Part shown: positions 1,521 to 58,627 of the stretch, in pieces
Layout of the letters: each line of letters begins with the position of its first letter
Numbering within the stretch: position 1 is the first letter of the stretch
Origin: an uncultured Hungatella sp.
Lineage (GTDB): Bacteria; Bacillota; Clostridia; Lachnospirales; Lachnospiraceae
Length of the DNA: 64,000 nucleotides
Reading direction: 5' to 3'
Assembly (NCBI GenBank): GCA_947066955.1
Contig: CAMTAF010000004.1
Location: 484-64,483, forward strand
The notes under the pieces: model-generated
What the model was told of the DNA's origin: nothing
Database searches by the model: none
What the model saw: only the letters and a program-made list of their open reading frames with translations
Position numbers and translations under genes: made by a program

Positions 1521-1696
1521 AGGAGGAAGGCAAATGCGCGGCATTTCTAGGATGCCTTCCGACGTCCTGGCAGGTGCCGCTGGGCGGCGCGTGCCGATAC
1601 CATATTATAGGAGGAAGGCAAACGCGTAAGCGTTTCTAGGATGCCTTCCGACGTTCTGGCAGGTGCCGCTGGCGGCGCGTGCCGATACCATATTAT
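1521..1696 (+). repeat. Dispersed structured repeat, two tandem ~88-bp units (AGGAGGAAGGCAAA...TAGGATGCCTTCCGACG..TGGCAGGTG..CGCGTGCCGATAC)
   Basis: Units 1521-1608 and 1609-1696 are near-identical; internal inverted repeats GGAAGGCA/TGCCTTCC and GGCA/TGCC. Confidence 0.9.
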
Positions 1697-1715
1697 ACCA
1701 GGAGGTACGTACATC

Positions 1716-2864
1716 ATGAATAAAAAAGAAGTTGCCGAGATCCGCAGGCAGTATACCCCGGAGCGCTGCACCATCACCCGGATCTGCGGCTGCTACATAG
1801 ATGCCGAGAAGAATGTAAAAACCGAGCTGAAGGAGGCATTTTTGTCCCTTCCGGAGGATGACGCCTTCAAATACTTTGCCATTTTCAAAAAGACCCTGTC
1901 CGGCACTCTGGGGCGCAATCTTCTGAACCTGGATTTTCCTCTGGAGGAAGAGAAGGAGGGCGGGGCCCAGGAGTTTTTGCTGAGGCTGAGGGACAGCCAG
2001 CTAAAGGATGATGATCTGATTCATGAATTTTACAACAAGATCATTGAGACTTACGACTACGGGGAAAATTACTATATCATCCTGATCCATGTGGCCTACG
2101 ACGTCCCAGGCAAGGCTGCGGACGGCCTGGAGATGTACGATGCCTCGGACAATGTGTACAGCTATATCCTGTGCAGCATCTGCCCGGTCCACCTATCCAA
2201 GCCTGGTCTGGGATACAACACGGAAAAAAACTGCATTGAAAACAGGGTCCAGGACTGGATCGTGGACCAGCCTGTGAAGGGATTTCTCTTCCCCTGTTTC
2301 AACGACCGGTACACAGATATCCACAGTCTGCTCTATTACACGAAAAATCCCGCCGAGCTCCAGGAGGATTTTCTCCAGAATATGTTCGGATGCAGCCGCA
2401 TTCCCCTTGCCGCCGACACTCAGAAGGAGACCTTCAATGCCCTGATCTCGGACACTCTGGGGGAGGAGTGCGATTACGGGATCATTAAAAATATTCACGA
2501 GAACCTGAACAGCCGCCTGGAAGAGTTCAAGGACGAACCGGAGCCTCTGGAACTTGGCAAGCAGGAGGTGCGCCGCCTTCTGGAGGACAGCGGAGTGCCT
2601 GACGAAAAACTGGAGGAATTCGACCATCACTATGATGAGTGTGCAGGGGAACAGACTTCTTTCCTGGCCTCCAATATCGCCAATACACGGCGTTTTTCCA
2701 TCGAGACGCCGGATGTGATTGTCCAGGTGAAGCCGGAGTCCGCGGACCTTGTGGAGACCCGCGTCATCGACGGCCGCCAGTGCCTGGTCATTGCCATCAA
2801 TGAGCATGTGGAGGTGAACGGCGTCAATGTCCGGGTGGCCCAGGAGGGCGGGACTTCGGATTGA
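1716..2864 (+). CDS. DUF4317 family protein
   Basis: N-terminus MNKKEVAEIRRQYTPERCTITRICGCY typical of this Clostridia family; SD AGGAGG before ATG 1716. Confidence 0.75.
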   Translation: MNKKEVAEIRRQYTPERCTITRICGCYIDAEKNVKTELKEAFLSLPEDDAFKYFAIFKKTLSGTLGRNLLNLDFPLEEEKEGGAQEFLLRLRDSQLKDDDLIHEFYNKIIETYDYGENYYIILIHVAYDVPGKAADGLEMYDASDNVYSYILCSICPVHLSKPGLGYNTEKNCIENRVQDWIVDQPVKGFLFPCFNDRYTDIHSLLYYTKNPAELQEDFLQNMFGCSRIPLAADTQKETFNALISDTLGEECDYGIIKNIHENLNSRLEEFKDEPEPLELGKQEVRRLLEDSGVPDEKLEEFDHHYDECAGEQTSFLASNIANTRRFSIETPDVIVQVKPESADLVETRVIDGRQCLVIAINEHVEVNGVNVRVAQEGGTSD

Positions 2865-2892
2865 TGCAATATGAGTGTCAATCAGGCAGGAG

Positions 2893-2939
2893 AAAAGCCG
2901 GACATCTGTATCATAATATGGTACAGATGTCCGGCTTTT
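2893..2939. terminator. Bidirectional intrinsic terminator
   Basis: Perfect 18-bp arms AAAAGCCGGACATCTGTA/TACAGATGTCCGGCTTTT between convergent genes. Confidence 0.85.
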
Positions 2940-2976
2940 TCTCTTTTATGCTGTTTTTTGAGAGTGTGTATAATTT

Positions 2977-3525
2977 CTATCCTTCCATCTGCCTCCCTAA
3001 AAATCCGGCAGCCGTGGTTACCAGCTTGATTTCCATGTCCCCCATTTTGGCCTTTGCCTCCCGGCTTAAGAGAGACACGCTTCCGATGGCATCGCCTTCA
3101 CATATGATTGGAGCCACAGCCTCAGCTGTGATCCCTTCCGTCTCCTCCGGGGTCAGGGGGACATAGTTCTTATCTTCCTTTGAAGCCACTACCACATTCC
3201 TCTCCCCAATAACATGCTCCAGCTGCTTGCTGATGGTCTTGCCCAGAAGCTCTTTTTTGGACCCGCCGGACACCGCGATGATCTGGTCCCGGTCAGTGAT
3301 GCACACCATCTGTCCTGTGGCCTGGGCCATGGCCTCGGCATATTGTCCGGAAAAAGCGGTCAGCTCCACCATGGGAGAATATTTTTTCAGAATGATCTCC
3401 CCTTCCCGATCCGTGAAAATCTCAAGGGGAGTTCCTTCCCTTAACCTCAGTGTTCTTCTTATTTCCTTTGGAATCACTACCCTTCCAAGATCATCAATTC
3501 TTCTCACTATTCCCGTAGCTTTCAT
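2977..3525 (-). CDS. spoVT: Stage V sporulation protein T (AbrB-type DNA-binding domain plus GAF)
   Basis: MKATGIVRRIDDLGRVVIPKEIRRTLR...ILKKYSP; 182 aa with C-terminal PIICEGDAIG. Confidence 0.95.
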   Translation of the reverse strand: MKATGIVRRIDDLGRVVIPKEIRRTLRLREGTPLEIFTDREGEIILKKYSPMVELTAFSGQYAEAMAQATGQMVCITDRDQIIAVSGGSKKELLGKTISKQLEHVIGERNVVVASKEDKNYVPLTPEETEGITAEAVAPIICEGDAIGSVSLLSREAKAKMGDMEIKLVTTAAGFLGRQMEG

Positions 3526-3585
3526 ATCACAATTCCTCCATTTTGCATCACCAGCATGATTACCTGATAAGATTTACTGTAAATG

Positions 3586-3614
3586 TAGTATCTGTAAAAT
3601 GGGGGAATTTATAC
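3586..3614 (-). promoter_or_regulatory. Possible forespore sigmaG/sigmaF-type promoter of spoVT
   Basis: GTATA-17 nt-GATACTA on minus strand; spoVT is sigmaG-dependent in B. subtilis. Confidence 0.35.
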
Positions 3615-3648
3615 TGCGGAAATTTTCCCGGGAATATGGCTTTTTTAA

Positions 3649-4794
3649 TCAATATGTAAACAGCTGCACCCAGTATTTTACTCCGCCGGCATTTTCATAA
3701 CAGCTAACTCCAATCTTGGTGAAATTTCTATCCAGAATATTGGCCCTGTGCCCCTGGCTGTTCATCCAGCCGCTCATCACTGCCTCGGGAGTCTGCTGGC
3801 CATATGCGATGTTCTCCCCGCTGCCCATGTACCTGACGCCGGTCTGATCCAGCACAGTTGTATAATAGGTCCCGTTGGGCCTTGTGTGGGAGAAATTCCT
3901 GGAAATCTCCTGCGCTCTCACAGCTGCGGCCGCCGAAACATCCGAGGCTTCCTCCACCGGAGAAAGACCCGCCTTGGCGCGCTCCGCATTGACCAGATCA
4001 ATCACTTTCTGCACATCCGCGCTCTCTGGATCCGTTGTCTGATTTCCAGGGTTCTGAATCCCCGGGTTCTGACCTCCGGGATTCTGCGTCCCAGGATTCT
4101 GCCCCCCGGGGGTCTGGCCCCCAGGAACCTCCGTACCAGGATTCTGCGTTCCGGGATTCTGGCCCCCTGGAACCTCCGTACCAGGATTCTGCCCCCCGGG
4201 GGTCTGGCCCCCAGGAACCTCCGTACCAGGATTCTGCGTTCCGGGATTCTGGCCTCCTGGAACCTCCGTACCGGGATTCTGCGTACCAGGGTTCTGGTCT
4301 CCTGGAGATTGTATCCCGGGATCCTCTGTCCCGGGATCCTGCGTCCCGGGGTTCTGACCTCCAGGGCACAGGATTCCCGGCGTTCCGCTTTCTCCGCTTC
4401 CGAAGCAATCCGGCCATACCGGCGCATTGTCGGCGCATCCAAAATTCCACACATCTTCCCATACAGCCGGAAGGTTTGGAACCAGAGGATTGTCATCCGT
4501 TCCTGGGAGAACAAATCCCCAGCCGCCGGACCAGGCATCCCAGCCTCCCTGATTTCCCCCAAAGCTTCCTCCTGAATTTCCTCCGCAGTTTCCCCCAAAG
4601 CTTCCTCCTGAATTCCATCCAAGATTCCCGCCATAGTTTCCCCCGAAATTCCCTCCCGGATTCCCTCCGGACCAGCTTCCGCAGCTTCCTCCTGCCACAT
4701 ACACGCTCACGGCTGCCTGAGATGTCATAGGCGTCGTCCCTGTCATGGCTGCTGCAGCAGCCGCCGCGTATAATACAAATCTCCTCATGTTCAT
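3649..4794 (-). CDS. Secreted CAP/SCP-domain protein with Gly-rich and Pro-Gly pentapeptide repeat linker
   Basis: Signal peptide; C-terminal LVNAERAKAGL...FSHTRP...GENIAYG...WMNSQGHRANIL; start 4794 or 4788. Confidence 0.88.
   Translation of the reverse strand: MNMRRFVLYAAAAAAAMTGTTPMTSQAAVSVYVAGGSCGSWSGGNPGGNFGGNYGGNLGWNSGGSFGGNCGGNSGGSFGGNQGGWDAWSGGWGFVLPGTDDNPLVPNLPAVWEDVWNFGCADNAPVWPDCFGSGESGTPGILCPGGQNPGTQDPGTEDPGIQSPGDQNPGTQNPGTEVPGGQNPGTQNPGTEVPGGQTPGGQNPGTEVPGGQNPGTQNPGTEVPGGQTPGGQNPGTQNPGGQNPGIQNPGNQTTDPESADVQKVIDLVNAERAKAGLSPVEEASDVSAAAAVRAQEISRNFSHTRPNGTYYTTVLDQTGVRYMGSGENIAYGQQTPEAVMSGWMNSQGHRANILDRNFTKIGVSCYENAGGVKYWVQLFTY
4094..4273. repeat. Coding tandem repeat: two 90-bp units built from 15-bp subunits (PGTEV/PGGQN/PGTQN)
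   Basis: 4094-4183 and 4184-4273 differ at two positions; degenerate 15-mers extend on both sides. Confidence 0.9.
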
Positions 4795-4813
4795 CCTCCT
4801 CGTATCCTATGAT

Positions 4814-4892
4814 GTCAGCACGCCCCGCTTTGCGGAACCTGCCATGCCGCCGGAAGGCATCTTAAAAAATGCTGTGCATTTGCCTTCCTTCT
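4814..4892 (-). repeat. Dispersed structured repeat, diverged full copy upstream of the CAP gene
   Basis: Minus strand GAAGGAAGGCAAATGCACAGCATTTTTTAAGATGCCTTCCGGCGGCATGGCAGGTTCCGCAAAGCGGGGCGTGCTGAC. Confidence 0.85.
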
Positions 4893-4896
4893 GTCT

Positions 4897-4923
4897 GTTA
4901 CAAATTTTTACATTTCTGTTACA
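4897..4923 (-). promoter_or_regulatory. WalR/OmpR-type direct repeat TGTAAC-N5-TGTAAA, plus a third TGTAAC
   Basis: Minus strand TGTAACAGAAATGTAAAAATTTGTAAC matches the TGTWAH-N5-TGTWAH consensus. Confidence 0.5.
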
Positions 4924-5134
4924 AATTAATATTAACATACAGAAGCTGGCAGCTCCATAGGGAAACGCTGGCGGCTCTGGGGGCAATTTCCAGAGGCAGT
5001 AAAATACATCCAAAAAAGAGCCGGACATCCAAAACAATTCCGCCTCTTTTTCTATAAAATATCAATCTTTCCAAACCTGACTCCTGATTCCAATGAATTG
5101 TTGTGCGCTGCATGCTCTCACAATTCTAAAACTA

Positions 5135-6007
5135 TTACAGTGCGTCAAACAATGCCGAACGGTCGCTGGCGTCGGTTTTTGCCAGAAACCACTCATTGAC
5201 ACTTTTCCTGAATAAGCTCCGGATTTCAGCGTTTGGTATGGTCAGCGCAAAGCTCCCGCCGTCAGGAGTCTCCGGGATCTCTTCCGGCCGCATTCTGGTG
5301 AGATAACCGGTGAAATACAGCAGTGTCCAGATATTCCTTTCAGAAGAATGCAGCACATCATAGGTCAAGTTGGGCTCAATCGGTTCAATAATATAGCCTC
5401 CGGAAAGCAAGGTTTCAAATTTATCGTTAATATCCGTTTCTGTTGTGCTGATAAATTGATAGATGATATCATTGTGGCTGGTGTGTTCCCAGTAGCCGGC
5501 CGGCCGCGCAGCAGGATTAAGCAGCAAATTCTTCACATGGTTCATCACATCCCATGGGCAGTACACATCTTGTCCGCCGAAGCGGTAGCCATTATACCAG
5601 TCCTTCATCTCATCTCTATGGCTGGTAAGCTTCGTATCCAAAAGGAGTCTGTCCACATCTGTCTGTGTAAACCCAAAATATTCGTCCAGCCGGGAATCCG
5701 AAATCGTATCGGACACAAAATTGTTGGTACCAGTAAAAATACTTTCTTTCGCGACCTGCAGGCAGCCGGTTACAATAGCAAAGTTAAGAGCCGAGTTGTC
5801 TTTGAGCACAGACATAACGCCTCCAATGGTACTCAGCATTTCTCTGTAGTAGCCTTTTGCGCTTGCCTTTGCCAAAGGAACATCGTATTCATCTATAAGA
5901 AGAATAACCGGCTTGCCGTAGTGCGTGGACATCACACGGGTGAGGATCAGCAAAGCGTTTTGCAATTCACCTGCAGAAGCAGTTCGTTCCGCAATTCGCG
6001 CAATCAC
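5135..6007 (-). pseudogene. Internal fragment of an AAA-ATPase-like / PD-(D/E)XK nuclease family gene
   Basis: Has LLIDEYD, TGCLQVAKESIFTG, WYNGY, YCPWDV, TIPNAEI but lacks the Walker A (RPRRFGK) region and the C-terminal nuclease present in the full paralogue at 29303-30922. Confidence 0.75.
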
Positions 6008-7500: not shown

Positions 7501-7515
7501 TTTCTTTCCTCCCCT

Positions 7516-9200: not shown

Positions 9201-9380
9201 AATCGTTGCCTCTCCCTTGTATTATTTTTAAAAACGGCTCTAATTATATCACAGTGTTTCCTTGGTTTCAATAAAAACTTTTGCGCTTTAAAGCATTATT
9301 CACTTTAAAGTTCTTGCAAATTTCTCCGGACCGTTCTATAATGCTTTCAGCGCTGTACAGCTTGCGTAATGGAGGAAAAT

Positions 9381-9905: not shown

Positions 9906-9946
9906 CGGCGGTTCGCTGTTATCTGATGGCGAGACCCCCGTCCACG

Positions 9947-11719: not shown

Positions 11720-11736
11720 ATGGGGAAGATTCTCCT

Positions 11737-14635: not shown

Positions 14636-15967
14636 ATGTTACAAAAATTAGAAAAATTCTTTATGCCTCTGGCTGAGAGAATCGGAAGGAACAAATACCT
14701 GATCGCCATCCGTGACGGGTTTCTTTTGTCCATGCCGCTGCTGATTGTGGGTTCTTTTTTCCTGCTGATCGCGAACTTCCCTATACCGGGGTGGACCCAG
14801 TTCTGGGGAAGGTTTTTCGGGGACAACTGGGCGGCTTATTTTTCAAAGCCCACAGATGCCACCTTCTCCATTATGGCGATCCTGGCTGTGATCGGAATCG
14901 GCTACTCCTTTGCGGAGCAGATGAAGGTGGATAAGCTGTTCGGGGCAGCCATCTCCCTGGTAAGCTGGTTCCTGATCATGCCCTATGAGATTCTTTTCGG
15001 GGACAGCGTGGTTGCGGGGATTCCCCTGAACTGGGTAGGTTCCAAAGGGATCTTTGTGGGAATCATCTGCGCCTTCGCGGCAGTCCATATTTACTCATGG
15101 GTGGATAAAAAGGGCTGGGTTATCAAGATGCCCGACGGGGTGCCGCCTACGGTTGAGAAATCCTTCGCGGCCCTGATTCCGGCAGGAGTGTCCCTTCTGG
15201 TGTTCTTTTTAATCAATGTGGTGTTTGCCATGACGCCATTTGGGAATGCCTTTAACTTTGTGTTCGTGATTTTGCAGACTCCTCTGCTGAAGCTGGGCAA
15301 TACCTTGCCTGCCATGGTTATCGCCTATATTTTCCTCCACTTTTTCTGGTTTTTCGGGATCAACGGCGGTTCGGTAGTTGGAGCCGTGTTCAACCCTATT
15401 CTCCAGACACTGTCGGCGGAGAACCTGGCGGCGCTCCAGGCCGGCCAGCCCATACCGAACATTATTTCCCAGCAGTTCCAGGATCTGTTCGCCACCTTCG
15501 GCGGAGCCGGGTCTACCCTATCGCTTCTCATCGCCATGCTGCTGTTCTGCCGTTCCAGGCGAGTGAAGGAGCTGGGCAAGCTGGCTTTAGTGCCGGGAAT
15601 TTTCGGGATCAACGAGCCCATTATTTTCGGCCTGCCCATTTTGCTGAACCCCCTTATGCTGGTGCCCTTTATGCTGGTGCCTACCATCAACATCGTGATC
15701 TCTTACTTCTGCATGAGCATCGGGCTGGTGCCCCTGTGCACGGGTATTGCCATACCCTGGACTATGCCGGTAATTGTGTCCGGCTTCCTGGCCACAGGGT
15801 GGCAGGGGTCTGTGCTTCAGGCGCTGCTGCTGGTGCTGGGAGTGTTTATCTACATGCCGTTTATCAAAATGATGGACAAACAGTATCTGGCCGACGAGAC
15901 AAAGGCAGTGGAGACCAGCGACGATGACGACATTTCCCTGGATGATTTGTCTTTTGATGATCTGTAA
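14636..15967 (+). CDS. PTS Lac/Cel-family EIIC
   Basis: AIRDGF, MPDGVPPTV, GGAGSTL, FGINEPIIFGLP, PWTMP. Confidence 0.93.
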   Translation: MLQKLEKFFMPLAERIGRNKYLIAIRDGFLLSMPLLIVGSFFLLIANFPIPGWTQFWGRFFGDNWAAYFSKPTDATFSIMAILAVIGIGYSFAEQMKVDKLFGAAISLVSWFLIMPYEILFGDSVVAGIPLNWVGSKGIFVGIICAFAAVHIYSWVDKKGWVIKMPDGVPPTVEKSFAALIPAGVSLLVFFLINVVFAMTPFGNAFNFVFVILQTPLLKLGNTLPAMVIAYIFLHFFWFFGINGGSVVGAVFNPILQTLSAENLAALQAGQPIPNIISQQFQDLFATFGGAGSTLSLLIAMLLFCRSRRVKELGKLALVPGIFGINEPIIFGLPILLNPLMLVPFMLVPTINIVISYFCMSIGLVPLCTGIAIPWTMPVIVSGFLATGWQGSVLQALLLVLGVFIYMPFIKMMDKQYLADETKAVETSDDDDISLDDLSFDDL

Positions 15968-15986: not shown

Positions 15987-16511
15987 ATGAAAATTGTGAT
16001 GATATTTGACCAGATTCAGTCAGGGCTTGGGACAAAAGACGACACCATGGTTCCCTTAACTGGCAAAAAAGAGGCTGTGGGACCCGCGGTGATGATGCAG
16101 CCTTTTTTAAAGGAAATCGACGGCCGGGTAGCGGCCTGCCTATGCTGCGGCAACGGCACTTACATGGAGAATCCCGACGAGGTCAGCAGAAAGCTGTGCG
16201 CCATGATAAGGAAACTGCAGCCGGACGTGGTGATCTGCGGCCCTGCCTTCAACTACGCGGATTACGGGGACATGTGCGCCCGGGTGGCAGCGGATATCAA
16301 CGCTACAACCGACAGCCGGGCCTTTGCCGCCATGTCCCAGGAAAACGAACAGGTGATCTCCAGGTACAAGGACCAGGTGATGATCGTCAAGACCCCCAAA
16401 AAGGGCGGTCTGGGGCTCAATGACTCTTTAAAGAACATGTGCCGGGTGGCAAAAGCCATGGCAGAGAACAGCAGCGAGCTGGAAAAATTAAAATCCGAGG
16501 TGTGTTTTTAG
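15987..16511 (+). CDS. GrdB-related protein (N-terminal part of the glycine/betaine reductase selenoprotein B family, no Sec)
   Basis: DQIQSGLG, LCCGNGTY, CGPAFNYADYG resembling GrdB GPAFNAGRYG; 174 aa. Confidence 0.65.
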   Translation: MKIVMIFDQIQSGLGTKDDTMVPLTGKKEAVGPAVMMQPFLKEIDGRVAACLCCGNGTYMENPDEVSRKLCAMIRKLQPDVVICGPAFNYADYGDMCARVAADINATTDSRAFAAMSQENEQVISRYKDQVMIVKTPKKGGLGLNDSLKNMCRVAKAMAENSSELEKLKSEVCF

Positions 16512-16556
16512 GAGGAAGGCAAACAGGAGGAAGGCAAACGCGCAGCGGTTTTAGGA
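16510..16556 (+). repeat. Dispersed structured repeat, 5' module with 15-bp tandem duplication
   Basis: AGGAGGAAGGCAAAC twice, then GCGCAGCGGTTTTAGGA; overlaps the upstream stop and abuts the downstream SD. Confidence 0.8.
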
Positions 16557-16570
16557 AGGAGGAAATGTAT

Positions 16571-17576: not shown

Positions 17577-18677
17577 TTGGAAGATAAGATCATAGAGATG
17601 GCGGAGAGCCTAAAGGACCGGATGCTCCAGGGGATCCTGGAAATGGTCAGGATCGACAGCGTAGAATCGGAACCAAAGCCGGACGCCCCTTTCGGGCCAG
17701 GGGTGAAGAGAGCTCTCGCCAAGGCCCTGGAATTGGGAGAGGAACTGGGCTTCCACTGTGTGAACCTGGACAACTACATCGGATACGCGGAATACGGACA
17801 GGGTGAGGACTATGTCTGCGCCATGGGGCATGTGGACGTGGTGCCTGTGGGGGACGGCTGGAGACAGCCGCCCTTCAGCGGGCACATAGAAGACGGGGTC
17901 ATCTACAGCCGGGGAATCCTGGACAACAAAGGCCCTTTGCTGTCCTGCCTCTATGGGCTCTATGCCTTGAAGGAACTGGGGATCAGACCCAAACACAGAA
18001 TTCGTATTATTTTCGGATGTGACGAGGAATCCGGGTTTGAGGATCTTCACTATTATCTGAAGAAAGAGAAGCCGCCTCTGTGGGGATTTACGCCGGACTG
18101 CAAATTTCCCGTGGTCTACGGAGAGCGGGGCAGAGCTGTAATCCGGGTGAACGGAGAAGAACTGGAGCCTTTTTTTGCATTTGTCACCCAATATTTTATC
18201 GGAGCCAAAAATACGGGGGACCGCCTGGGAATCGATATTTCCCACAAAGAATACGGAACCATGGAGATGAGGGGATATAAACTTGGGGTGGAAGGGGGAA
18301 AACCTTATTTTGAAGCATCCTTAAGTTACCCGGCAGGCTGCGGCATTGAGGAGATCTTAAGGAGGATCCGGGGGAAAGCCGGCGGCCTTTCCGTAGAGCT
18401 GCGGCAAAATTACAATCCAGTGGTCTTTGACAAGGAAAGCCCTTTGGTTTTGGCTTTAACGGAGTGCTATGAAAAGGTAACGGGATTGGACGGGACCCCT
18501 GTAACCACCACAGGGGGAACCTACGCCAAGGCTATGCCCAACATAGTCCCATTCGGCCCCAGTTTTCCGGGACAGAAGGGAATCGGACACAACCCTAACG
18601 AGTGGATGACCGTAGAAGACCTGATGAAGAACGCCAAAATCTATGCACTAGCCCTATACCGCATAGGCAATCTTTGA
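17577..18677 (+). CDS. M20 Sapep/PepV-type dipeptidase
   Basis: GHVDVVP, RGILDNKGP, DEESG, GGTYAK, HNPNE; TTG start. Confidence 0.88.
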   Translation: MEDKIIEMAESLKDRMLQGILEMVRIDSVESEPKPDAPFGPGVKRALAKALELGEELGFHCVNLDNYIGYAEYGQGEDYVCAMGHVDVVPVGDGWRQPPFSGHIEDGVIYSRGILDNKGPLLSCLYGLYALKELGIRPKHRIRIIFGCDEESGFEDLHYYLKKEKPPLWGFTPDCKFPVVYGERGRAVIRVNGEELEPFFAFVTQYFIGAKNTGDRLGIDISHKEYGTMEMRGYKLGVEGGKPYFEASLSYPAGCGIEEILRRIRGKAGGLSVELRQNYNPVVFDKESPLVLALTECYEKVTGLDGTPVTTTGGTYAKAMPNIVPFGPSFPGQKGIGHNPNEWMTVEDLMKNAKIYALALYRIGNL

Positions 18678-18713
18678 GGAAGAAGGCAAACGCGCAGCGG
18701 CGCGTGCCGCTAC
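18677..18713 (+). repeat. Dispersed structured repeat, internally deleted copy
   Basis: AGGAAGAAGGCAAACGCGCAGCGGCGCGTGCCGCTAC joins the head of the 5' module to the tail of the 3' module. Confidence 0.75.
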
Positions 18714-18731
18714 TAGGAGGAGGAAATTGTT

Positions 18732-21476: not shown

Positions 21477-21593
21477 TCCTAAAAACGCTGCGCGTTTGCC
21501 TTCCTCCTTGCGGTAGCGGCACGCGACGCTTCGCATCACCTGCCAATACGTCGGAAGGCATCCTAAGAAACGCTGCGCGTTTGCCTTCCTCCT
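21477..21593 (-). repeat. Dispersed structured repeat, one full unit plus a partial second unit
   Basis: Minus strand AGGAGGAAGGCAAACGCGCAGCGTTTCTTAGGATGCCTTCCGACGTATTGGCAGGTGATGCGAAGCGTCGCGTGCCGCTACCGCA then AGGAGGAAGGCAAACGCGCAGCGTTTTTAGG. Confidence 0.9.
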
Positions 21594-22386
21594 ACATAAA
21601 CTGAATGATATTGTATACGCAGATCAGCATAATAATCCCCATGAGCCCGATAAACAGCTTGTTCACCATGGTTCCGTCCATGCGTCTGTTCACGGTCCTT
21701 CCTGCCGCCCCTCCCAGGATGCCGCAGGCGACCATGAGGACCAGAAGCCCTATGGTGAACTCCGGCACGGTTCTTGTCACCAGGGTGTTTACCAGGCTGG
21801 CAATCTGGGAAAACAGGATAATGTACAGAGAATTCTGGGCCGCTGTCTTGGTATCCATGGAGAAGAAGAAAAACAGGACCACCAGGTTGATGGGGCCACC
21901 GCCGATGCCCAGGAAGGAGGACAGGATCCCCAGCACCAGGCCGATGGCTATGCACGCAGGCACGTTGGTGACATGATGTGTCCTGATCTTATCCTTCTTC
22001 AGCGTGTAAATAAGGGTTCCAAATGTAATGACCAGCAGGCAGGAGGCCTGGACCGCGCCCACCTGATCCCTGTCCGCTGCCAGGCTGGAAATGTACTGAA
22101 ACATCATTTTCCCCGCCACACCTCCAAGGGCGGCTCCAATGGCCAGGGGAGTTCCCGTCTTCATATCCACAAGAGAAGAACCTCCAAGCTTTGCCTTTAC
22201 CACTGAGTAGCAGGACATGGACAGCACGGTGCAGCCGGAGAGAAAGCTGATGCTGGCCACGCTCAGGACCCCGAAGGTGTCCAGGATAGGCTTGATCAGC
22301 ACTCCGCCGCCGATGCCGCATATGGCTCCTGCCACAGAGGCCAGAAAACTTACCATGGCGAAAATAACGTACAGATACAGATTCAT
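21592..22386 (-). CDS. TauE/SafE (TSUP) family sulfite/sulfate exporter
   Basis: GAICGIGGGVLIKP and SSFLGIGGGPINL duplicated motif; multi-TM. Confidence 0.88.
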   Translation of the reverse strand: MNLYLYVIFAMVSFLASVAGAICGIGGGVLIKPILDTFGVLSVASISFLSGCTVLSMSCYSVVKAKLGGSSLVDMKTGTPLAIGAALGGVAGKMMFQYISSLAADRDQVGAVQASCLLVITFGTLIYTLKKDKIRTHHVTNVPACIAIGLVLGILSSFLGIGGGPINLVVLFFFFSMDTKTAAQNSLYIILFSQIASLVNTLVTRTVPEFTIGLLVLMVACGILGGAAGRTVNRRMDGTMVNKLFIGLMGIIMLICVYNIIQFM

Positions 22387-23909: not shown

Positions 23910-25211
23910 TTAATCCGCCAGTTCCTGCTCTTCTTTTAAGGCCTGGGTGTCAAGCACCTTAAAGAACGGAAAATAACAGCATATCTGAATCAGCACCAGA
24001 ACCACCTGCCACACAGCCAGCTTCCAGCCGCCGCAGAGCATCCCGGACAAAACCACAGGCGTGCCCAGAGGAATCTCCATACCGTTCATAACCGGAATCA
24101 CCCCCAGGAGGGTCATCACATAAGACAGAGTAAAAGTAATCACAGGCGTCAAAAGGAGGGGGATCAGCATAATGGTGTTCAGCACCATGGGAAGTCCAAA
24201 GGTAATGGGTTCATTGATGCCGCAGAGTCCTGACGGAAGAGCCAGCTTGCCCAGTGCCTTGTACCTCTGGCTTTTGGCCATAAAACACATGACAATACAC
24301 AGCCCTAAAGTTCCGCCGGCGCCTCCCAAAGAGGCATACCCGCTCCACGCGGACTTCACGATCATATTGGGAAGCTCTGCCCCCGCGCCGTAGGCGGTTA
24401 AGTTCTCCATAGCCAGAGGCATGTACAGCATGTTGATAAAAGGCATAACAATCATTCCGCCGTGAAGTCCGAAGAACCACATGATGCTGCACATGAGAAT
24501 CAGGACGATCATGGTAAACGGGCTTGCTCCCAGGGCGGAGAGAGGAGCCTTTAACAAGGTGTAGATACAGGTGTTGATGTCTCCAAAGGAAGTCAGAGAA
24601 AATCCAAAACGAATCAGAGCAAATATGAGCAAAATCATGAAGGATGGCAAAATTCCCTGGAACGAAATGGAAATCTGGGGCGGAACACTGTCCGGCATCC
24701 GGATGACCAGCTTTTTGTCAATAAAAAACTTATAAAGCACTGGTATGGCAAGTCCGAAAATCATGGCCGTAAACAGGCCGGCTGCCCCCAGATAGGAGGT
24801 TGACAAAGCCGCTGCCACTGTCACCGTGATCTCATCTTTTGTTCCCGTTACTCCCAATGGAATCATAACAAGAAATACCGCCAATGTCAACAGACCGATA
24901 CTGTTTGCCTGCTTGTCCATATCAATGCTGCCCGCGGTTGCGCGGGAAATGCTGTATACCGCATAGAGGGCCAGCATGTCTGTGGTGATCTTGGGGACAA
25001 ATCCAAAGATCTCTTTTAAATGGACCGCAGTGATCATGGACTGGTAAAAGCTGATGTTTAAATTAGCCAGAAGAGTAAACAGCGCCCCCACGATAACAAT
25101 GGGAAGACAGGCGGAAAAACCGCTGCTGATGGACTTGAGGTATCGGTTCTCGGACAGCTTCTGAGCCAGAGGAAGCAGCGCGTTTCCTAATTTTTCTGTA
25201 AATTTCTCCAT
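23910..25211 (-). CDS. PTS Lac/Cel-family EIIC (no cognate EIIA/EIIB in the operon)
   Basis: MPDSVPP, WFFGLHG, GGAGGTL, CGINEPITFGLP. Confidence 0.9.
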   Translation of the reverse strand: MEKFTEKLGNALLPLAQKLSENRYLKSISSGFSACLPIVIVGALFTLLANLNISFYQSMITAVHLKEIFGFVPKITTDMLALYAVYSISRATAGSIDMDKQANSIGLLTLAVFLVMIPLGVTGTKDEITVTVAAALSTSYLGAAGLFTAMIFGLAIPVLYKFFIDKKLVIRMPDSVPPQISISFQGILPSFMILLIFALIRFGFSLTSFGDINTCIYTLLKAPLSALGASPFTMIVLILMCSIMWFFGLHGGMIVMPFINMLYMPLAMENLTAYGAGAELPNMIVKSAWSGYASLGGAGGTLGLCIVMCFMAKSQRYKALGKLALPSGLCGINEPITFGLPMVLNTIMLIPLLLTPVITFTLSYVMTLLGVIPVMNGMEIPLGTPVVLSGMLCGGWKLAVWQVVLVLIQICCYFPFFKVLDTQALKEEQELAD

Positions 25212-25230
25212 AATTGAACTCCTTTCAATG

Positions 25231-25267
25231 GGTATCGGCACGCGCCGCTTTCGCGTCACCTGCCAGG
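25231..25267 (-). repeat. Dispersed structured repeat, 3' module only
   Basis: Minus strand CCTGGCAGGTGACGCGAAAGCGGCGCGTGCCGATACC, directly before the SD GAAAGGAG. Confidence 0.8.
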
Positions 25268-25350
25268 TGGTCATCAGTTTTACAAGCTACAAGGATCCGG
25301 TTCCCATGAGCACATCATACCTTATTTTGGATAAAAGTTCAATATAATTT

Positions 25351-52746: not shown

Positions 52747-53042
52747 AAAACCTATCGGACGTGAATACCGTCTGTTCCCTGCCCGCCTCCCCCCCGTTCT
52801 GTTCCCCAAATCTTCCGAATTTCATTATTCAACCTGTTGCGAAACCCCCAAATACATATTATAATTACTATAAAGCTCTATGGCCGCAGGCGGTCTGAAT
52901 CCGGGGATACTTTATGGCTCGGAACACGCTCGCTCCGGGGGAGTCGGCGCCCGCCATAGTTCACGCGCGGCGGTGTATCTGCTGCCGGGCGCATAGGGTA
53001 TTATGAAGGTCTGCCAAGGGGCAGACGCCACAAGAAGGAGAG

Positions 53043-53804
53043 ATGTTTATGAGGGGGAAAGTATATGCGCTGTCAGATCTTCACGGACATTATGACGCCC
53101 TCTGCGCCATGCTGAAAAAAATAAACTTCAGTGATGATGACACGCTGTATATATTGGGGGACTGCAACGATAGAGGCGAGAAAGCCATGGAGATCTATCA
53201 TTTTATCCAGCAGCATCAGGACAATGTCTTTTTGTTAAAGGGAAACCACGAGCTGATGATGCGGGATTTTCTCATAAAAAATGACTGGACGTGTCCCCAG
53301 GGAAGGATCTGGCAGTGCAACGGCGGCGACAAGACTATGGAACAGATGGATCAGTTCCTGAAAAAGGGATGCGAAAACAAAAAAGACTTTGAGTGCAAAA
53401 GGACGGAATTTAGAGGCTGGCTTATCAAATATGTCAACTCCCTGCCCAGCTACATTGAAGTGAATGTGGGCGGTCAGGCCCTGGTGCTCATCCATGCGGG
53501 GATTGACCCGGAACGCCCTCTTCACGAACAGGACGAAGAGATCTGCGCCTGGATCCGGGAATGGTTTTACATGTCACCGGCCCTCAAGGGCAAGACCATC
53601 GTGTTCGGCCACACACCTCTGTGCCATCTGAACGGCGGCGAGAATTTCGATGTGTGGTTCGACCCTTACTATCACGATAAGATCGGCATTGACGGCGGTC
53701 TTGGGCCATTTGACAACGGGCAGCTCAACTGCCTCTGTCTCAATGACATGTCAGTGACAGTGATTAAGAAAAAAGATCTGGAAGTGAAAAAGGAGGCTGT
53801 GTGA
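53043..53804 (+). CDS. PPP-family (PrpA/lambda-type) metallophosphoesterase
   Basis: SDLHG, GDCNDRG, GNHE, IHAG, FGHT, IDGG. Confidence 0.9.
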   Translation: MFMRGKVYALSDLHGHYDALCAMLKKINFSDDDTLYILGDCNDRGEKAMEIYHFIQQHQDNVFLLKGNHELMMRDFLIKNDWTCPQGRIWQCNGGDKTMEQMDQFLKKGCENKKDFECKRTEFRGWLIKYVNSLPSYIEVNVGGQALVLIHAGIDPERPLHEQDEEICAWIREWFYMSPALKGKTIVFGHTPLCHLNGGENFDVWFDPYYHDKIGIDGGLGPFDNGQLNCLCLNDMSVTVIKKKDLEVKKEAV

Positions 53805-53805
53805 T

Positions 53806-54567
53806 ATGGATGTGCTTTTGGCAAGGATTCTCAAGTATTTAAACGGAGCCCTGTTCTACGACGACTACTACAAATTCTGCACCTACATCGTGGACCATTA
53901 TCTGGAGATGGAATCCGTGACCAAGGAGAGAATCCTCTCTGAGACCGGAATTGATGAGAAGAATCTGGATGATTTTGTCCGCCGTTTAGGCCATGATTTT
54001 GACTGGGAGACCTTTCACAGGACTTTTGTCCAGCACCACCTCACCCGCTTAGATCAGATACGGGGGCGGATGGTAGGACTGCGGGCCGCTGACCTTGTGA
54101 AGGATATGAAAAAAGATATGACCGATGAGGAGATGTTAAACTATATCTCCGTGATCTGTGAAGAGATTGAGTTCCACAAGCGGATTGTCATCGTGGGGGC
54201 TCTCTACCCCATGTCCATTGCCGTGGAGTTCCAGACAGACCTGATCACTTTTGGGAAAAATGTGATTCAGTTCCACACCTTCGACCCCACTATGATGTTC
54301 ACGGAAGACGACATGCTGATCTTCATCTCCGCTACAGGAAGAGCCATGAAGGGCTTCCTCAAGGACAGGGGCAACTTAAACCCAGACGCGGCCACAAGCC
54401 TTCTGATCACTCAGAATCCCATTTACACCAGGCCCGAACACAGAATCAGCAGTTTTGTCCTGCGGCTTCCCGGAAGATATGACGGGCTGGACTTCAATCA
54501 TCAGCTGATGCAGATCTTTGACCTGATCCGCATTCAGTATTATCAAAAGTATTATTTGGGGATGTAA
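53806..54567 (+). CDS. Divergent RpiR-like protein (HTH plus SIS-like)
   Basis: YKFCTYIVDH...ETGIDEKNLDDFVRRLG resembles the RpiR HTH; LIFISATGR resembles the SIS loop. Confidence 0.55.
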   Translation: MDVLLARILKYLNGALFYDDYYKFCTYIVDHYLEMESVTKERILSETGIDEKNLDDFVRRLGHDFDWETFHRTFVQHHLTRLDQIRGRMVGLRAADLVKDMKKDMTDEEMLNYISVICEEIEFHKRIVIVGALYPMSIAVEFQTDLITFGKNVIQFHTFDPTMMFTEDDMLIFISATGRAMKGFLKDRGNLNPDAATSLLITQNPIYTRPEHRISSFVLRLPGRYDGLDFNHQLMQIFDLIRIQYYQKYYLGM

Positions 54568-54600
54568 GGATTACAAATATGAAAACCAGGGGGGTATTAT

Positions 54601-56034
54601 ATGGACCAAGCATCAGATAACACTTTGATTCAACAGTTCAGACAGTGGGTGCTGACTCAGACCAGTTCTCATTATAAGCTCTACATAAATGAAAAAGACA
54701 GCAACGTGATTGTGATCGAAACCAGCTACTGCCGGGGGGAGGTCACCTTCTTTCCCATGGATATTATTCAGTTAAGCGTTCTGAACCTGGTAACGGACCG
54801 CCATGAATTCTATCTTCATTTTCAGATGCACACCTTAGAACATGCCATGAAGCTGTTTCGGGAGATGCTGGAGAGTGTAAAGGAGCTGTCTGTCAAGCCG
54901 CCTGTCCGCATTCTTCTGACCTGCACCAGCGGCCTCACTACCGGATTTTTCGCCCAGAAGCTTAATGAGTCCGCTGAACTTCTGTCCCTGAATTACGAAT
55001 TCACCGCAGTCTCCTACGGCAACCTGTACCATGTGGCCAGCCAGTATGATATCATCCTTCTGGCGCCTCAGATCTCCTATATCTACGAGACTGCCAAAAA
55101 GATCCTGCACAACAAGAAGGTTTATCAGATTCCGCCCAAGGTCTTTGCCACCTATGATGTCAAGACGGTATTTGCGGACTTAGAGCCTCTTCTTTCGCCG
55201 CGCAAGCATTCCGGACGCCCCTATATCCGCCAGCTTCCCCTGAAAAAACAGGTGAAGTCCCATGTAAAGATCTTAACCATCGCCCTCATCCGGGAAGACG
55301 ACCATTTTCTCCTGTCCTCCAGGATCTATACGGAGAACAACGGAATCATCTTTGACGAGGTCAGCATCAAGCCCCAGATCAACATGGACGATGTGTGCGA
55401 TGTATGCGACACGGCCTTTGCCATCTATCCCGAGATCAATACCGTAGGCCTGTCCATGCCAGGGATCATTGATGAGGGACGTCTCACCCTTCTCGCCCAG
55501 GGGTTTGACGAGAGCAATATCCTGGACTCTATGTCAAAAAGGTATTCCCGAAAATTTGTCCTGGGCAATGACGCCAACTGCATTGCTGTGGGCTACTATT
55601 CTTCCCAGGATCAGTACCACTCCATCTCCGCCCTGTTCCAGCCCTTTGTGGCATCCACAGGCGGCCTTGGCAGCATCCACAACGGCCAGCTGATCGAGGG
55701 CTACCGCCATGTGGCCGGGGAGGTCCAGTTCCTCCCCATCAACAGCGAGATCAGCAACAGCAATCTCATGCCTTCCCTGAGGATGACCCCGGAGGGCACT
55801 CTGTCCTGGGCCGCCCAGACCATTGCCTCCATTATCAGCATCTTAGGGCCGGAAGTCATCCTTCTGTCCTGCCGCCTTATTGTTCAGATCGACGGCCTTA
55901 TACAAGAACTGGAAAAATATGTGCCGGGAAAATATATCCCGAAGATCGTCCAGATCGACAGCGTAAAGGATTACATGCTCCTGGGCCTGATGATTCTCTG
56001 TACAGAGGCTATCGAGGAACGGGAGGAGTGCTGA
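54601..56034 (+). CDS. Fusion: unknown N-domain, PTS EIIB (Lac/Cel type), ROK domain
   Basis: ILLTCTSGLTT...IILLAPQISY; VGLSMPGII, LGNDANCIAVG, GLGSIHNGQLIEG...AGEV. Confidence 0.7.
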   Translation: MDQASDNTLIQQFRQWVLTQTSSHYKLYINEKDSNVIVIETSYCRGEVTFFPMDIIQLSVLNLVTDRHEFYLHFQMHTLEHAMKLFREMLESVKELSVKPPVRILLTCTSGLTTGFFAQKLNESAELLSLNYEFTAVSYGNLYHVASQYDIILLAPQISYIYETAKKILHNKKVYQIPPKVFATYDVKTVFADLEPLLSPRKHSGRPYIRQLPLKKQVKSHVKILTIALIREDDHFLLSSRIYTENNGIIFDEVSIKPQINMDDVCDVCDTAFAIYPEINTVGLSMPGIIDEGRLTLLAQGFDESNILDSMSKRYSRKFVLGNDANCIAVGYYSSQDQYHSISALFQPFVASTGGLGSIHNGQLIEGYRHVAGEVQFLPINSEISNSNLMPSLRMTPEGTLSWAAQTIASIISILGPEVILLSCRLIVQIDGLIQELEKYVPGKYIPKIVQIDSVKDYMLLGLMILCTEAIEEREEC

Positions 56035-56043
56035 CAAACGGAC

Positions 56044-56081
56044 AGGGGCCCATATATCCTTCCCTGGATATATGGACCCCT
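56044..56081. terminator. Hairpin between convergent genes
   Basis: CCATATATCC...GGATATATGG; coordinates approximate. Confidence 0.5.
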
Positions 56082-56086
56082 CTCTT

Positions 56087-56689
56087 CTACCGCAAGTAGC
56101 GTTTGACTCTTCCCAGCATCCGCACCTTTTCCGCATAGTCAAACAACCGCTCTATCTGCCTTTCTCCGCTTTTGCGGTAGTTTTCTATGATCAGGTCAAA
56201 GAGATCATCGCCGATGCTGTCCTTAAAACGGATACAGTCACAGACGCTCCTGTCCAAGTCGTACACCCGGTACATCCCTAAAGGAGTTGTCACCTTCTTA
56301 ACGCTGTCTTCAAAATAACTGTCCCCAAAATAGTGCCTGCATGTGGGGAAATTCACTTTCATCTTGCTCCGGTCACTTCTCCTTGTGGCTACGGACAGGC
56401 GTTCCGGCTCCACATCAATCAGTCCCAGATAGAAGCAGGCGCTGTCCGCGCAGATTACGGCGCCGGGATTGGTGATACACACTTCAAGCGCCTTGTAGTC
56501 TCCAGGCTTCTCATGCCTCTCATCCACAAACCAATAATGTCCATGAGATACCTTCTCCAGCATTCCACTTTGCACAAACGCGCCGATCTGACGGTTCGTC
56601 ACCTTCCCTTGCAGCAGTTCCGCAGTTGTAATATACCCTGAGTATTGTTTTGATAAATTTTCCAGTCTCTTCACAGTACTTTCCAGCAT
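56087..56689 (-). CDS. Type IV TA AbiEi-family antitoxin domain protein (orphan)
   Basis: GYITTAEL...LEKVSHGHY wHTH, VICADSAC.Y.GL, RVYDLDRSVCD. Confidence 0.75.
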   Translation of the reverse strand: MLESTVKRLENLSKQYSGYITTAELLQGKVTNRQIGAFVQSGMLEKVSHGHYWFVDERHEKPGDYKALEVCITNPGAVICADSACFYLGLIDVEPERLSVATRRSDRSKMKVNFPTCRHYFGDSYFEDSVKKVTTPLGMYRVYDLDRSVCDCIRFKDSIGDDLFDLIIENYRKSGERQIERLFDYAEKVRMLGRVKRYLR

Positions 56690-56879
56690 ACACGTTCCTC
56701 CTGATAAAAACTCGGGCCAGTGTTATCTGTTTTCAGTATATCATATCCGGTTAACTTCTTCAATGACCGGCTCGTCCGTTTTCCACAAAAAAAGGAGATA
56801 GTTCTGGACTTTCCTCTCTTTCTTCATTATACTAAAAGGCAGAGGTTCTTCTTATACTATACTATGGAGGTATCATTTT

Positions 56880-58259
56880 ATGAAACTGTTTGGAAAAAAG
56901 CCGGCGCCCCGAACCAGCTCCAGGCCTGTCAGCCGTGAATCTGAACCCAGCGCTCCGGCAAATGTCTCCCGGAAAAATTCCTGCTATGAATATCTGGATG
57001 GAGTCATGTCCAACCCTGACCGGCGCAACAGCGGAACCGCCCTTAAGATTTATATTGAAAATTTTAAACGCCTCAACGAGGTTTTCGGCTACGACTACTG
57101 CGAAGAGCTTCTCCAGCAGATCCTCACCTATTTAAGGCAGGTGACGGGAAAAAAGCTTCACCAGTTCATCGGTGTGGAATATATCGTTATCCTGGAGCAC
57201 ACCACAAGCGTTCAGGCACAGGCTGTCTGCCAGGAGATCCTGGACCGTTTTGAGCATGTGTGGACCGTCGGGGAGATCGATTGTGTCTGCTCTGTTCAGA
57301 TCGGCATCTGCGGCTTTCCCACCTATGCCTCCACAACGGACCAGCTTCTGGAATGTTTGGACACCGCTGTGTCAAAGGCTTCCGAGTACGGCCCCAACCA
57401 GATGGTGGTCTACAACAGCACCCTCCGGGAACATATGGCCAGACGCCACGTTATTGCCATGTATTTAAATGAGGCCTTTGACCGCCAGGAGATCGAGGTC
57501 CGCTACCGCCCCACCTACAATATCGAGAAGAAAAAGTTTTCCCGCGCGGAACTGTACCTGCGCATCTTTGTCAAAGGCCTGGGGTTTGTAGGTGCGCCGG
57601 AGTTCACCCCTGTAGCCGAAGATTCCGGACAGATCCGCACCCTGGAATACTTTGCCTTAGAGCACTTGGGAGCCTGCATCGCCCAGCTTCTGGAGCGGGG
57701 TATTGAATTCGAATCCGTGAGCACCCGGATCTCCCCCATGATGCTTCTCCAGGGGGATCTGCTGGAAAAGGTCAAGGCCATCTTGAGCCGCTATCAGATT
57801 CCCGCAGGCAAGCTGGCCCTGGAATTCTCCGAGAATGCTTACCTCACCTCTCAGCTGAACATGACCATGACTCTTCAAAGCCTGTCGGAGATGGGTGTGG
57901 AGGTGATCTTAAATGACTTTGGCTCCGGCTTCTCCAGCATCTCCAGCCTTCTGGAGCTTCCCGTAGACACGGTGAAGTTCGAGCGCCTGTTTATCTGGCA
58001 GCTGGAGAGCAATCCCAAAGCCCGCATCATGGTAGACAGCCTGACCCAGATGGCCAAGAACTTAGGGCTTAAGATGATCGCCGAGGGAGTTGAGACCCAG
58101 CATCAGCTGAAAGTGCTCAACCGGGCAGACTGCATCTACCAGCAGGGCTTCTACTATGCGCCTACCATGGAAAAAGACCTCCTTTTCCAGCTTATGGACT
58201 GCTCCATGGAAGAGTCCAAGGCTGTTCTGGAGAAAGCACGGGAAGCTGTTCGAAGATAA
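56880..58259 (+). CDS. GGDEF-EAL protein with degenerate motifs
   Basis: IGVEY instead of GGDEF; ELYLR, NDFGSG, VKFE, AEGVET, QQGFYY. Confidence 0.85.
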   Translation: MKLFGKKPAPRTSSRPVSRESEPSAPANVSRKNSCYEYLDGVMSNPDRRNSGTALKIYIENFKRLNEVFGYDYCEELLQQILTYLRQVTGKKLHQFIGVEYIVILEHTTSVQAQAVCQEILDRFEHVWTVGEIDCVCSVQIGICGFPTYASTTDQLLECLDTAVSKASEYGPNQMVVYNSTLREHMARRHVIAMYLNEAFDRQEIEVRYRPTYNIEKKKFSRAELYLRIFVKGLGFVGAPEFTPVAEDSGQIRTLEYFALEHLGACIAQLLERGIEFESVSTRISPMMLLQGDLLEKVKAILSRYQIPAGKLALEFSENAYLTSQLNMTMTLQSLSEMGVEVILNDFGSGFSSISSLLELPVDTVKFERLFIWQLESNPKARIMVDSLTQMAKNLGLKMIAEGVETQHQLKVLNRADCIYQQGFYYAPTMEKDLLFQLMDCSMEESKAVLEKAREAVRR

Positions 58260-58267
58260 GCCAAACC

Positions 58268-58564
58268 CTAACCGCGGCTTTCCTGTCTGCCGCCGGAGCC
58301 GGAAGCCCTTGTGCCCGTTTTCGAGTACAGGGCTTTCGCGCTGACCCCCGGCACCCTCCCAAGCCTCCCTGACAGCGCGCTGATCTTGTCCAAAGGGGCA
58401 TCCACCACCACGCTGATGATGTTCACAGACCTTTTCTCATAAGGCAGACCCATGCGGCCGATAATAAACTCTCCATATTGGTGAAGCAGCTCATTTACCA
58501 TGCCCACCGCTGCCTTGTCCTCCACGATGATCCCGATGACCGCGATCCTTGTCTCCTGTTCCAT
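58268..58564 (-). CDS. TM1266-family ACT/CopG-like small protein (Fe-hydrogenase system associated)
   Basis: TRIAVIGIIVED...VNELLH.Y...IIGRMGLPY...LSGRLG. Confidence 0.8.
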   Translation of the reverse strand: MEQETRIAVIGIIVEDKAAVGMVNELLHQYGEFIIGRMGLPYEKRSVNIISVVVDAPLDKISALSGRLGRVPGVSAKALYSKTGTRASGSGGRQESRG

Positions 58565-58584
58565 GCCTCCTCCTTCTTTGGAAA

Positions 58585-58627
58585 CGGCACGCAAGCACGC
58601 GCCGCGACCCGTCACCTGCCAAGTCGT
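58585..58627 (-). repeat. Dispersed structured repeat, 3' module only
   Basis: Minus strand CGACTTGGCAGGTGACGGGTCGCGGCGCGTGCTTGCGTGCCG before SD AAGGAGGAGG. Confidence 0.7.

Follow-up and report, generated by a model that had tools for sequence, protein, structure and literature searches.

GA-cis RNA before ribosome-binding sites of an uncultured Hungatella sp.: a catalogued motif that probably behaves as a mobile repeat

Several described classes of bacterial repeats and leaders bear comparison with GA-cis, a structured repeat of about 88 nt that we analyzed in a 64,000-nt stretch of DNA from an uncultured Hungatella sp. of the Lachnospiraceae (contig CAMTAF010000004.1 of GenBank assembly GCA_947066955.1, positions 484 to 64,483 of the forward strand; hereafter the window) and throughout the genome to which this stretch belongs. 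Its closest functional analog is the mycobacterial interspersed repetitive unit (MIRU). MIRUs have been described as mobile repeats that insert at start codons with little effect on downstream expression (PMC12548453). Like GA-cis they are short, sense-oriented repeats at operon junctions that are able to amplify in tandem; however, they come from a different phylum and keep expression through an internal open reading frame (ORF) coupled at -4 nt, whereas GA-cis, whose mini-ORFs are inconsistent, does so by regenerating a Shine-Dalgarno (SD) sequence and has two strong covarying hairpins. Repeats of the REP/BIME-REPIN type are, like GA-cis, high-copy extragenic hairpin repeats within transcripts, and they can affect mRNA stability, but they lie mostly after genes, occur in both orientations or as inverted pairs and go with a RAYT gene, whereas GA-cis units are arranged head-to-tail, lie 15–22 nt before start codons and are accompanied by no Y1 transposase. 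Miniature inverted-repeat transposable elements (MITEs) such as Correia/NEMIS, ERIC, RUP, and BOX are also non-autonomous, transcribed intergenic repeats with a patchy distribution and lineage-specific bursts. Their insertions, which face either way, are bounded by terminal inverted repeats (TIRs) and produce a target duplication of fixed length, whereas GA-cis has no TIRs, a variable 3' junction, and a sense orientation in ~92% of cases. STAB-SD-type leaders, such as the STAB-SD of Bacillus thuringiensis cryIIIA and the ermC leader, combine hairpins with an SD-like sequence close to the 5' end of a cistron. GA-cis likewise has an SD-like sequence and hairpins upstream of the real ribosome-binding site (RBS), and by analogy a comparable side effect at the RNA level is plausible; those leaders, however, are single evolved structures and GA-cis is a dispersed repeat.

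In this genome GA-cis occupies translation-initiation regions in the sense orientation, bordered 5' by an SD-like copy and 3' by a working SD. The repeat is lineage specific and has a high turnover, growing by tandem amplification and eroding through microhomology deletion. Because it lies before gene starts and is absent at the corresponding sites of sister species, its behavior resembles that of a mobile repeat and not that of a gene-specific switch. We consider it probable that GA-cis is a non-autonomous, essentially selfish repeat of Lachnospiraceae that targets translation-initiation regions and regenerates the SD and is hence tolerated. No discussion of GA-cis as a mobile repeat was found in the searchable literature.

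An earlier, sequence-only reading of the window had recognized no named family for the repeat and had itself listed an Rfam hit as an outcome that would speak against novelty. Such a hit exists: the family is already catalogued as GA-cis RNA (RF02987) and hence is not a new one. A default Rfam scan of the window reported only a tRNA and no match at the repeat copies; a permissive scan was needed to reveal GA-cis there, aligning the copy at the first locus with positions 1–88 of the 88-position model at 34.3 bits, just below the RF02987 gathering threshold of 34.7 bits, and the remaining full window copies were not reported under RF02987 by cmscan. A search of the whole assembly (4.22 Mb, 240 contigs) with RF02987, in which 150 of 411 candidates were scored, gave at least 126 matches, at least ~120 of them above the cut-off and the best at 67 bits, and an nhmmer profile built from 45 of the genomic matches recovered the window copies with E values of 1e-17 to 1e-22. 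The window copies may lie at or below the cut-off partly because the second hairpin (P2) of the dominant subfamily in this genome differs, reading GGCAGGUG...CGUGCC instead of the GCCGCC...GGGGGC of the Rfam consensus. The window copy and the model have AGGAGG, the UUAGgAU bulge, CCGACGA, and GC.UAC in common, and the alignment to the model consensus, the genome consensus with its fold, and a cross-genus alignment reveal the GA-cis architecture of a 5' AGGAGG, a first hairpin (P1) with a nested hairpin and a 3' bulge, the CCGACGA linker, P2, and the GC.UAC tail. The placement also agrees, the copies lying upstream of protein-coding genes with two or three units at 67 of 303 loci. GA-cis stems from a survey of 224 motifs (PMC5737381), a paper whose main text is silent on this motif, and the Rfam 15 paper (PMC11701678) lists it with one additional covarying pair. 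Although RF02987 and the copies described here have the same 88-position layout, conserved blocks, and position upstream of genes, Rfam treats the motif as a candidate cis-regulatory RNA, whereas our data point to a mobile RBS-targeting repeat.

The GA-cis unit is ~88 nt long (genome consensus AGGAGGAAGGCAAAYGCGnAGCRTTTTTAGGATGCCTTCCGACGACnTGGCAGGTGnCGCGAAGCGnCGCGTGCCGATACC). At its 5' end AGGAGG, half buried in P1, is followed ~8 nt later by ATG in most lineages, and this AGGAGG-spacer-ATG arrangement mimics a translation start. P1 contains a nested mini-hairpin capped by C-GNA-G and the 7-nt UUAGGAU bulge; 3' of it come the conserved CCGACGA linker, the G+C-rich P2, and a short A-rich tail, after which another AGGAGG belongs to the next unit or is the working SD of the downstream gene. 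Covariation of the stems, claimed from the window copies, was found both in this genome and across genera, except that one of the four inner stems originally listed (GACGC/GCGGC) has an A.G mismatch, which is common in the family. Within the genome the pair 15-23 is C.G (164 copies) or T.A (87 copies) with intermediates nearly absent, several further stem pairs show double changes, and 242 of 262 distinct copies retain a helix-internal T.G, whose counterpart on the opposite strand would be an A.C mismatch. Between genera the P1 outer stem differs wholly in sequence yet still pairs (GGAAACA/TGTTTCC, GGCGCC/GGCGCC, GGGGCTG/CAGCCCC, GTGATC/GATCAC), with 6–12 double-sided changes per pair among 27 sequences; the cross-genus MAFFT alignment misaligns the length-variable inner hairpins, and covariation was counted for this stem only. 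AGGAGG, the ATG ~8 nt on, the C-GNA-G loop motifs, CCGACGA, and the GC.UAC tail are kept across genera.

The genome carries 380 units identified by nhmmer, 292 of them full length, which make up ~0.8% of its sequence and are distributed over 303 loci (236 singles, 57 doubles, and 10 triples). Five short metagenome contigs (L012, L013, L014, L020, and L021) begin or end within GA-cis units, and many contig ends of this genome (G000) lie in such units as well; because the repeat thus breaks assemblies, the true copy number is probably higher than 380. Gene calls came from a greedy, crude ORF map, by which 263 of the 285 scorable loci have a co-oriented downstream gene, about 14 standard deviations from 50:50. 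The strong sense bias seen in the window holds genome-wide, but at ~92% by this map it falls short of the "always" first claimed for it. In the sense direction 270 of 303 loci have an ORF of at least 60 aa that begins no more than 100 nt downstream, versus 109 of 303 in the antisense control, and start codons most often lie 15–22 nt from the unit end. While 191 loci are intercistronic, 55 follow a divergent gene. The downstream genes are functionally unrelated; among their products are transporters, a dehydrogenase, a glycoside hydrolase, DUFs, a radical SAM enzyme, CutC, and an asparaginase. The position in the 5' untranslated region (5'-UTR) and the occasional tandem arrangement, which some riboswitches also have, would suit a metabolite-sensing riboswitch or a leader-peptide attenuator, but hundreds of copies before unrelated genes, a fold of two simple hairpins, inconsistent mini-ORFs, and the lack of a U-tract terminator after P2 make such a sensor improbable in the extreme. 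An intrinsic terminator was rejected as well, no U-tract following P2 at the loci at 1520–1692, 4810–4892, and 21477–21594 of the window.

In 32 of 85 intercistronic loci that are well anchored, the stop codon of the upstream gene overlaps the first AGGAGG (TAGGAGG in 23, TGAGGAGG in 5) or lies directly against it (4). This feature is part of what would be expected if GA-cis worked in the manner of MIRUs, that is, if the mini-ORF formed by the unit's own SD and ATG were translated and ribosomes were passed on to the downstream gene by termination-reinitiation coupling. The conservation of SD-N8-ATG in most genera and the reported mobility of MIRUs and their insertion at start codons (PMC12548453) also fit. 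However, only about one-third of the units in this genome have the ATG, the majority having ACG; the unit ATG lies within a stem; the stops of the mini-ORFs are scattered, 12 of 72 mini-ORFs with SD and ATG abutting the downstream start; and 88 is not divisible by 3. We regard such coupling as very unlikely here, and a leader peptide or coupled mini-ORF was rejected given the scattered stops and the restriction of the mini-ORF to about a third of the units.

The proposal that the element inserts at SD sequences and duplicates them is supported by comparison with relatives: an arrangement of SD-unit(s)-SD in this genome corresponds to a single plain SD at their empty orthologous sites. All 16 element loci with syntenic flanks are empty in the close relatives G005 and G020, which have a plain SD before the ATG there, and 800 kb from two close relatives contain 3 units versus ~70 expected at the density of this genome. 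In the window, the site at 18676–18713 is empty in the contig L001 (TAA, 18 nt, and ATG) and the site at 16510–16556 in L003 (TAG, 18 nt, and ATG), so that 54–57 nt with the element stand against a stop codon, 18 nt with one plain SD, and the ATG in relatives; none of eight orthologous 12–20-kb loci in relatives holds a GA-cis copy. Conversely, at least three element loci of relatives are empty in this genome. At least four units of G020, each preceded by TGAGGAGG, face ...gttgaaTGAGGAGGtaatataATG here, and a three-unit array of a relative flanked by AGGAGGAAGGCAAATG faces a "solo" TGAGGAGGAAGGCAAATG that serves the orthologous gene as RBS and start codon. Two pairs of sites illustrate the relationship: cagTAGGGAGGaaaaatATG in the relative corresponds to cagTAGGAGG, the unit, and AGGAGGagaagattATG in this genome, and TAAatAGGAGGatagatcatATG corresponds to TAAAAGGAGG, the unit, and AGGAGGacaaatcatATG. 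In two cases the AAGGCAA of the element up to the ATG replaces the native spacer, and in one case the upstream ORF now terminates within the element. A gene-specific cis-regulator was rejected in view of the diverse downstream genes and the absence of any shared site among the 16 orthologous ones.

Some sites show element sequence serving as part of a gene. Solo AGGAGGAAGGCAAA(TG) RBSs without a nearby unit were seen at C13:~30321 (- strand), C25:~7870, and ~9 other sites of the genome, where element sequence supplies the gene's SD, spacer, and ATG; the site in G020 that is orthologous to the one on C13 has three units. Solo sites may be footprints of unit loss or founder sites. In G005 (contig C7, L026) the start of a downstream gene appears to lie within a partial unit (MGSMFK...), and at C66:786–1062 (- strand) of this genome the last codons of the upstream ORF (EEERL*) are encoded by the first unit. 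The intergenic spacer at C5:27176–27345, at the position of two GA-cis units in G011, contains a local direct repeat of another kind (two copies of CCTTTGTGCGCCCGGCAG...CTGCTGTA). It also has a 27-nt motif, AAGTTTGGCGCGCGCACTTGGCATACC, found again on five further contigs, and this may be another small repeat family.

The RBS after an array matches at least 10 nt of the element 5' end (AGGAGGAAGGCAAAYG) at 27% of loci compared with 1.9% of 1,414 AGGAGG-led control genes, and at the variable 3' junction the stretch of element 5' sequence measures 6 to 18 nt. As a rule, therefore, the last unit of an array is followed by a truncated one, variable in length, from which the working SD and in some cases also the spacer and ATG derive. 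At the flanks no duplication beyond AGGAGG was found, one flank position rising slightly above the shuffled control. Identity is 94% between adjacent units versus 85% between loci, and the neighbor is the best genome-wide match for 65 of 118 arrayed units; thus, arrays grow in place by tandem duplication.

GA-cis is a high-copy repeat restricted to Lachnospiraceae. It was found in 17 of 25 species of the genus in very unequal copy numbers, in 16 of 300 sampled genera of the family, and in none of 16 other families of the order; the copy numbers of relatives, including several of the 16 genera, are lower bounds. The named relatives with GA-cis are metagenome-assembled genomes of Lachnospiraceae.

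The distribution and the empty sites also bear on the catalogued interpretation, in which GA-cis would be a cis-regulatory module of the 5'-UTR or intercistronic region, read by a global trans-acting factor (a protein, a small RNA, or the 30S subunit) that tunes translation or mRNA stability of hundreds of genes, with the copies kept by selection. Strict sense orientation at a fixed distance to the start codon, stems that covary across genera with a conserved sense-strand wobble, exposed GGA motifs, and the pairing of the SD-like element to an anti-SD-like CCUUCC all suit this interpretation, as does the accessibility of the SD downstream of units, predicted in silico to be 0.50 versus 0.36 in control genes (p = 1e-9). 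Yet 0 of the 16 orthologous sites, and none of others compared, are common to close relatives; congeners range from none to hundreds of copies; the downstream genes have no functional relation; tandem arrays and many truncated copies occur; and CsrA, the candidate GGA-binding protein, is absent from this and five other element-rich genomes. A tuning module, which had been one of the two initial suggestions, is weakened because orthologous loci show no conservation, and we consider it unlikely. A CsrA-binding leader, prompted by the UUAGGAU bulge, was rejected, PF02599 being absent from G000, G108, G204, G319, G195, and G260.

If GA-cis is instead a mobile repeat, start-site mimicry (AGGAGG, sometimes through ATG) would provide both the target and a short junction homology to the RBS of any gene, and our best guess is that dispersal would proceed by copy-choice or microhomology recombination, although an enzyme is possible too. 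The former is favored over a cut-and-paste enzyme because the 3' junction is variable and a transposase is absent. Insertions would be tolerated because an exposed SD is left or recreated at the right distance from the ATG. As RNA, a unit would place two stable hairpins just upstream of an accessible SD and may incidentally insulate the RBS or stabilize the downstream cistron, an effect with which the higher SD accessibility predicted in silico is compatible. More tentatively, as something quite possible though short of probable, we suggest that GA-cis is a so far unrecognized kind of mobile repeat that homes to arbitrary RBSs by start-site mimicry, dispenses with a dedicated transposase and spreads by copy-choice or microhomology or by a host enzyme, is near neutral through RBS regeneration, and occasionally donates the SD, spacer, start codon, or terminal codons.

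A further alternative, an element of REP/REPIN type or derived from IS200/IS605, would have a Y1 (HUH) transposase acting in trans that reads the hairpins as single-stranded DNA and inserts the element 3' of AGGAGG. The C-GNA-G loops form very stable DNA mini-hairpins and d(GCGAAGC) is a notably stable one, a lead by which the GA-cis hairpins may matter as single-stranded DNA, and the two subterminal hairpins, the orientation-specific insertion beside a short asymmetric target, and the lack of a long target duplication would be in keeping with this mode. A linked RAYT or IS200-type transposase was nevertheless found neither in this genome nor in five other element-bearing species of the genus tested: the Y1_Tnp domain PF01797 is absent from G000 and from those five congeners but present in four of five element-free ones. 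Units are head-to-tail and not in inverted REPIN pairs, and the position of the 3' junction varies, whereas an IS200/IS605-derived PATE would have fixed cleavage sites at both ends. We see little chance that GA-cis moves in this way. A classical MITE was rejected, no TIRs being visible in the consensus and AGGAGG being the only flanking repeat; a parent insertion sequence was not searched for.

Several observations count against GA-cis as a mobile repeat. Exact-protein contig look-ups yielded strain contigs identical to the window, with the exception of the truncated contig L014, which could represent a one-unit allele, and no mobilizing gene, excision product, or strain-level insertion polymorphism has been demonstrated. 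The junction details are heterogeneous and point to no single clean insertion rule. The strong covariation of the stems and the kept sense-strand T.G wobble also fit an RNA selected in place. Finally, the empty sites could formally be losses instead of gains, which is unparsimonious given 16 of 16 sites and the outgroups.

What may matter is the reinterpretation of an Rfam candidate cis-regulatory RNA as a burst-amplified repeat that lands at RBSs. If this is true, GA-cis would be a Firmicutes counterpart of the mycobacterial MIRUs and a natural element that rewrites RBS contexts genome-wide, with a bearing on operon evolution, on strain typing of gut Lachnospiraceae through arrays that resemble variable number tandem repeats, and on metagenome assembly, in which contigs break in GA-cis. 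It would also caution against taking a position upstream of genes plus covariation as proof of regulation.

In the window, GA-cis is present at all seven loci of the sequence-only reading, on the strands given there, and every copy runs in the direction of the next gene and stops shortly before the SD of that gene, as had been described. The loci comprise four full units and five partial pieces, namely two 5' halves, one internally deleted unit, and two 3' halves (table 1), in addition to a 15-nt fragment. Both 5' halves stop at the AGGA of the bulge and join the next AGGAGG directly; the one at 16525–16556 joins the functional SD (16557–16562) of an asparaginase gene (ATG 16571) at AGGA microhomology. 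In the internally deleted unit, which overlaps the TGA stop of an M20 peptidase gene and precedes the SD (18715–18723) and ATG (18732) of cutC, the AGCG of the inner hairpin is fused to the AGCG of P2. From their sequences, the partial pieces look like microhomology deletions. The copy at 58580–58628 is identical across 7 independent assemblies.

Table 1. GA-cis copies and adjoining signals in the window (RF02987, bit score from the Rfam scan; hmm, positions in the nhmmer profile)
Feature	Position	Strand	Basis
Full GA-cis unit 1 (AGGAGG, P1 with nested hairpin and UAGGAU bulge, CCGACG linker, P2, tail)	1520-1604	+	RF02987 34.3 bits; nhmmer E 1.4e-21
Full unit 2, head-to-tail with unit 1	1607-1692	+	nhmmer E 3.9e-19; sequence
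AGGAGG, SD of DUF4317 gene (ATG 1716)	1700-1705	+	sequence
Full unit upstream of CAP-domain protein gene (ORF from 4794; likely ATG 4788)	4810-4892	-	nhmmer E 4.1e-17
15-nt 5' fragment AGGAGGAAGGCAAAC; first AG completes TAG stop of upstream gene	16510-16524	+	sequence; L003 empty junction
5' half unit through UUAGGA bulge	16525-16556	+	nhmmer hmm 3-35
Internally deleted unit, 5' 24 nt fused to 3' 14 nt (P2 3' strand) at AGCG microhomology	18676-18713	+	sequence; L001 empty site
Full unit; AGGAGG overlaps TAG stop of TauE gene	21510-21594	-	nhmmer E 2.7e-22
5' half unit, then SD and ATG (21462) of radical SAM/SPASM gene	21477-21508	-	nhmmer hmm 4-35
3' half unit (P2 hairpin and GATACC tail) before SD and ATG (25211) of phosphotransferase system (PTS) EIIC gene	25230-25272	-	nhmmer hmm 44-85, E 5.7e-7
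3' half unit (CCGACGA linker remnant and P2 with small insertion) before SD and ATG (58564) of TM1266-like gene	58580-58628	-	repeat detection, sequence

Other features of the window lie near these copies or are repetitive in their own right. Upstream of the first array, a tRNA gene (1325–1395, - strand, 77.5 bits) adjoins an integrase-type ORF (2–1192, + strand) that is annotated as a phage-type integrase (PF00589) in strain contigs, and the two may mark the edge of an integrated element. The intergenic region beside the copy at 4810–4892 contains a weak match to the Rfam Clostridiales-1 RNA (5085–5191, - strand; 24.9 bits versus a gathering score of 48, E = 0.1), and the neighboring gene (3649–4794, - strand) encodes a secreted CAP-domain protein with a long collagen/extensin-like repeat region, its DNA having periodic repeats of 15/45 nt and 12 nt (families D1, D2, and D4). 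An 18-nt periodic coding repeat at 61561–61719, rich in CCGCC/CCTCC on the + strand, lies in the ORF at 61116–63899 (- strand) and gives rise to a low-complexity repeat in a protein of ~930 aa. A 117-nt inverted match with 73% identity (15566–15682 versus 24144–24260) links the ORF at 14636–15967 (+ strand) with the PTS EIIC gene at 23910–25211 (- strand), and these two may be paralogs in opposite orientation.

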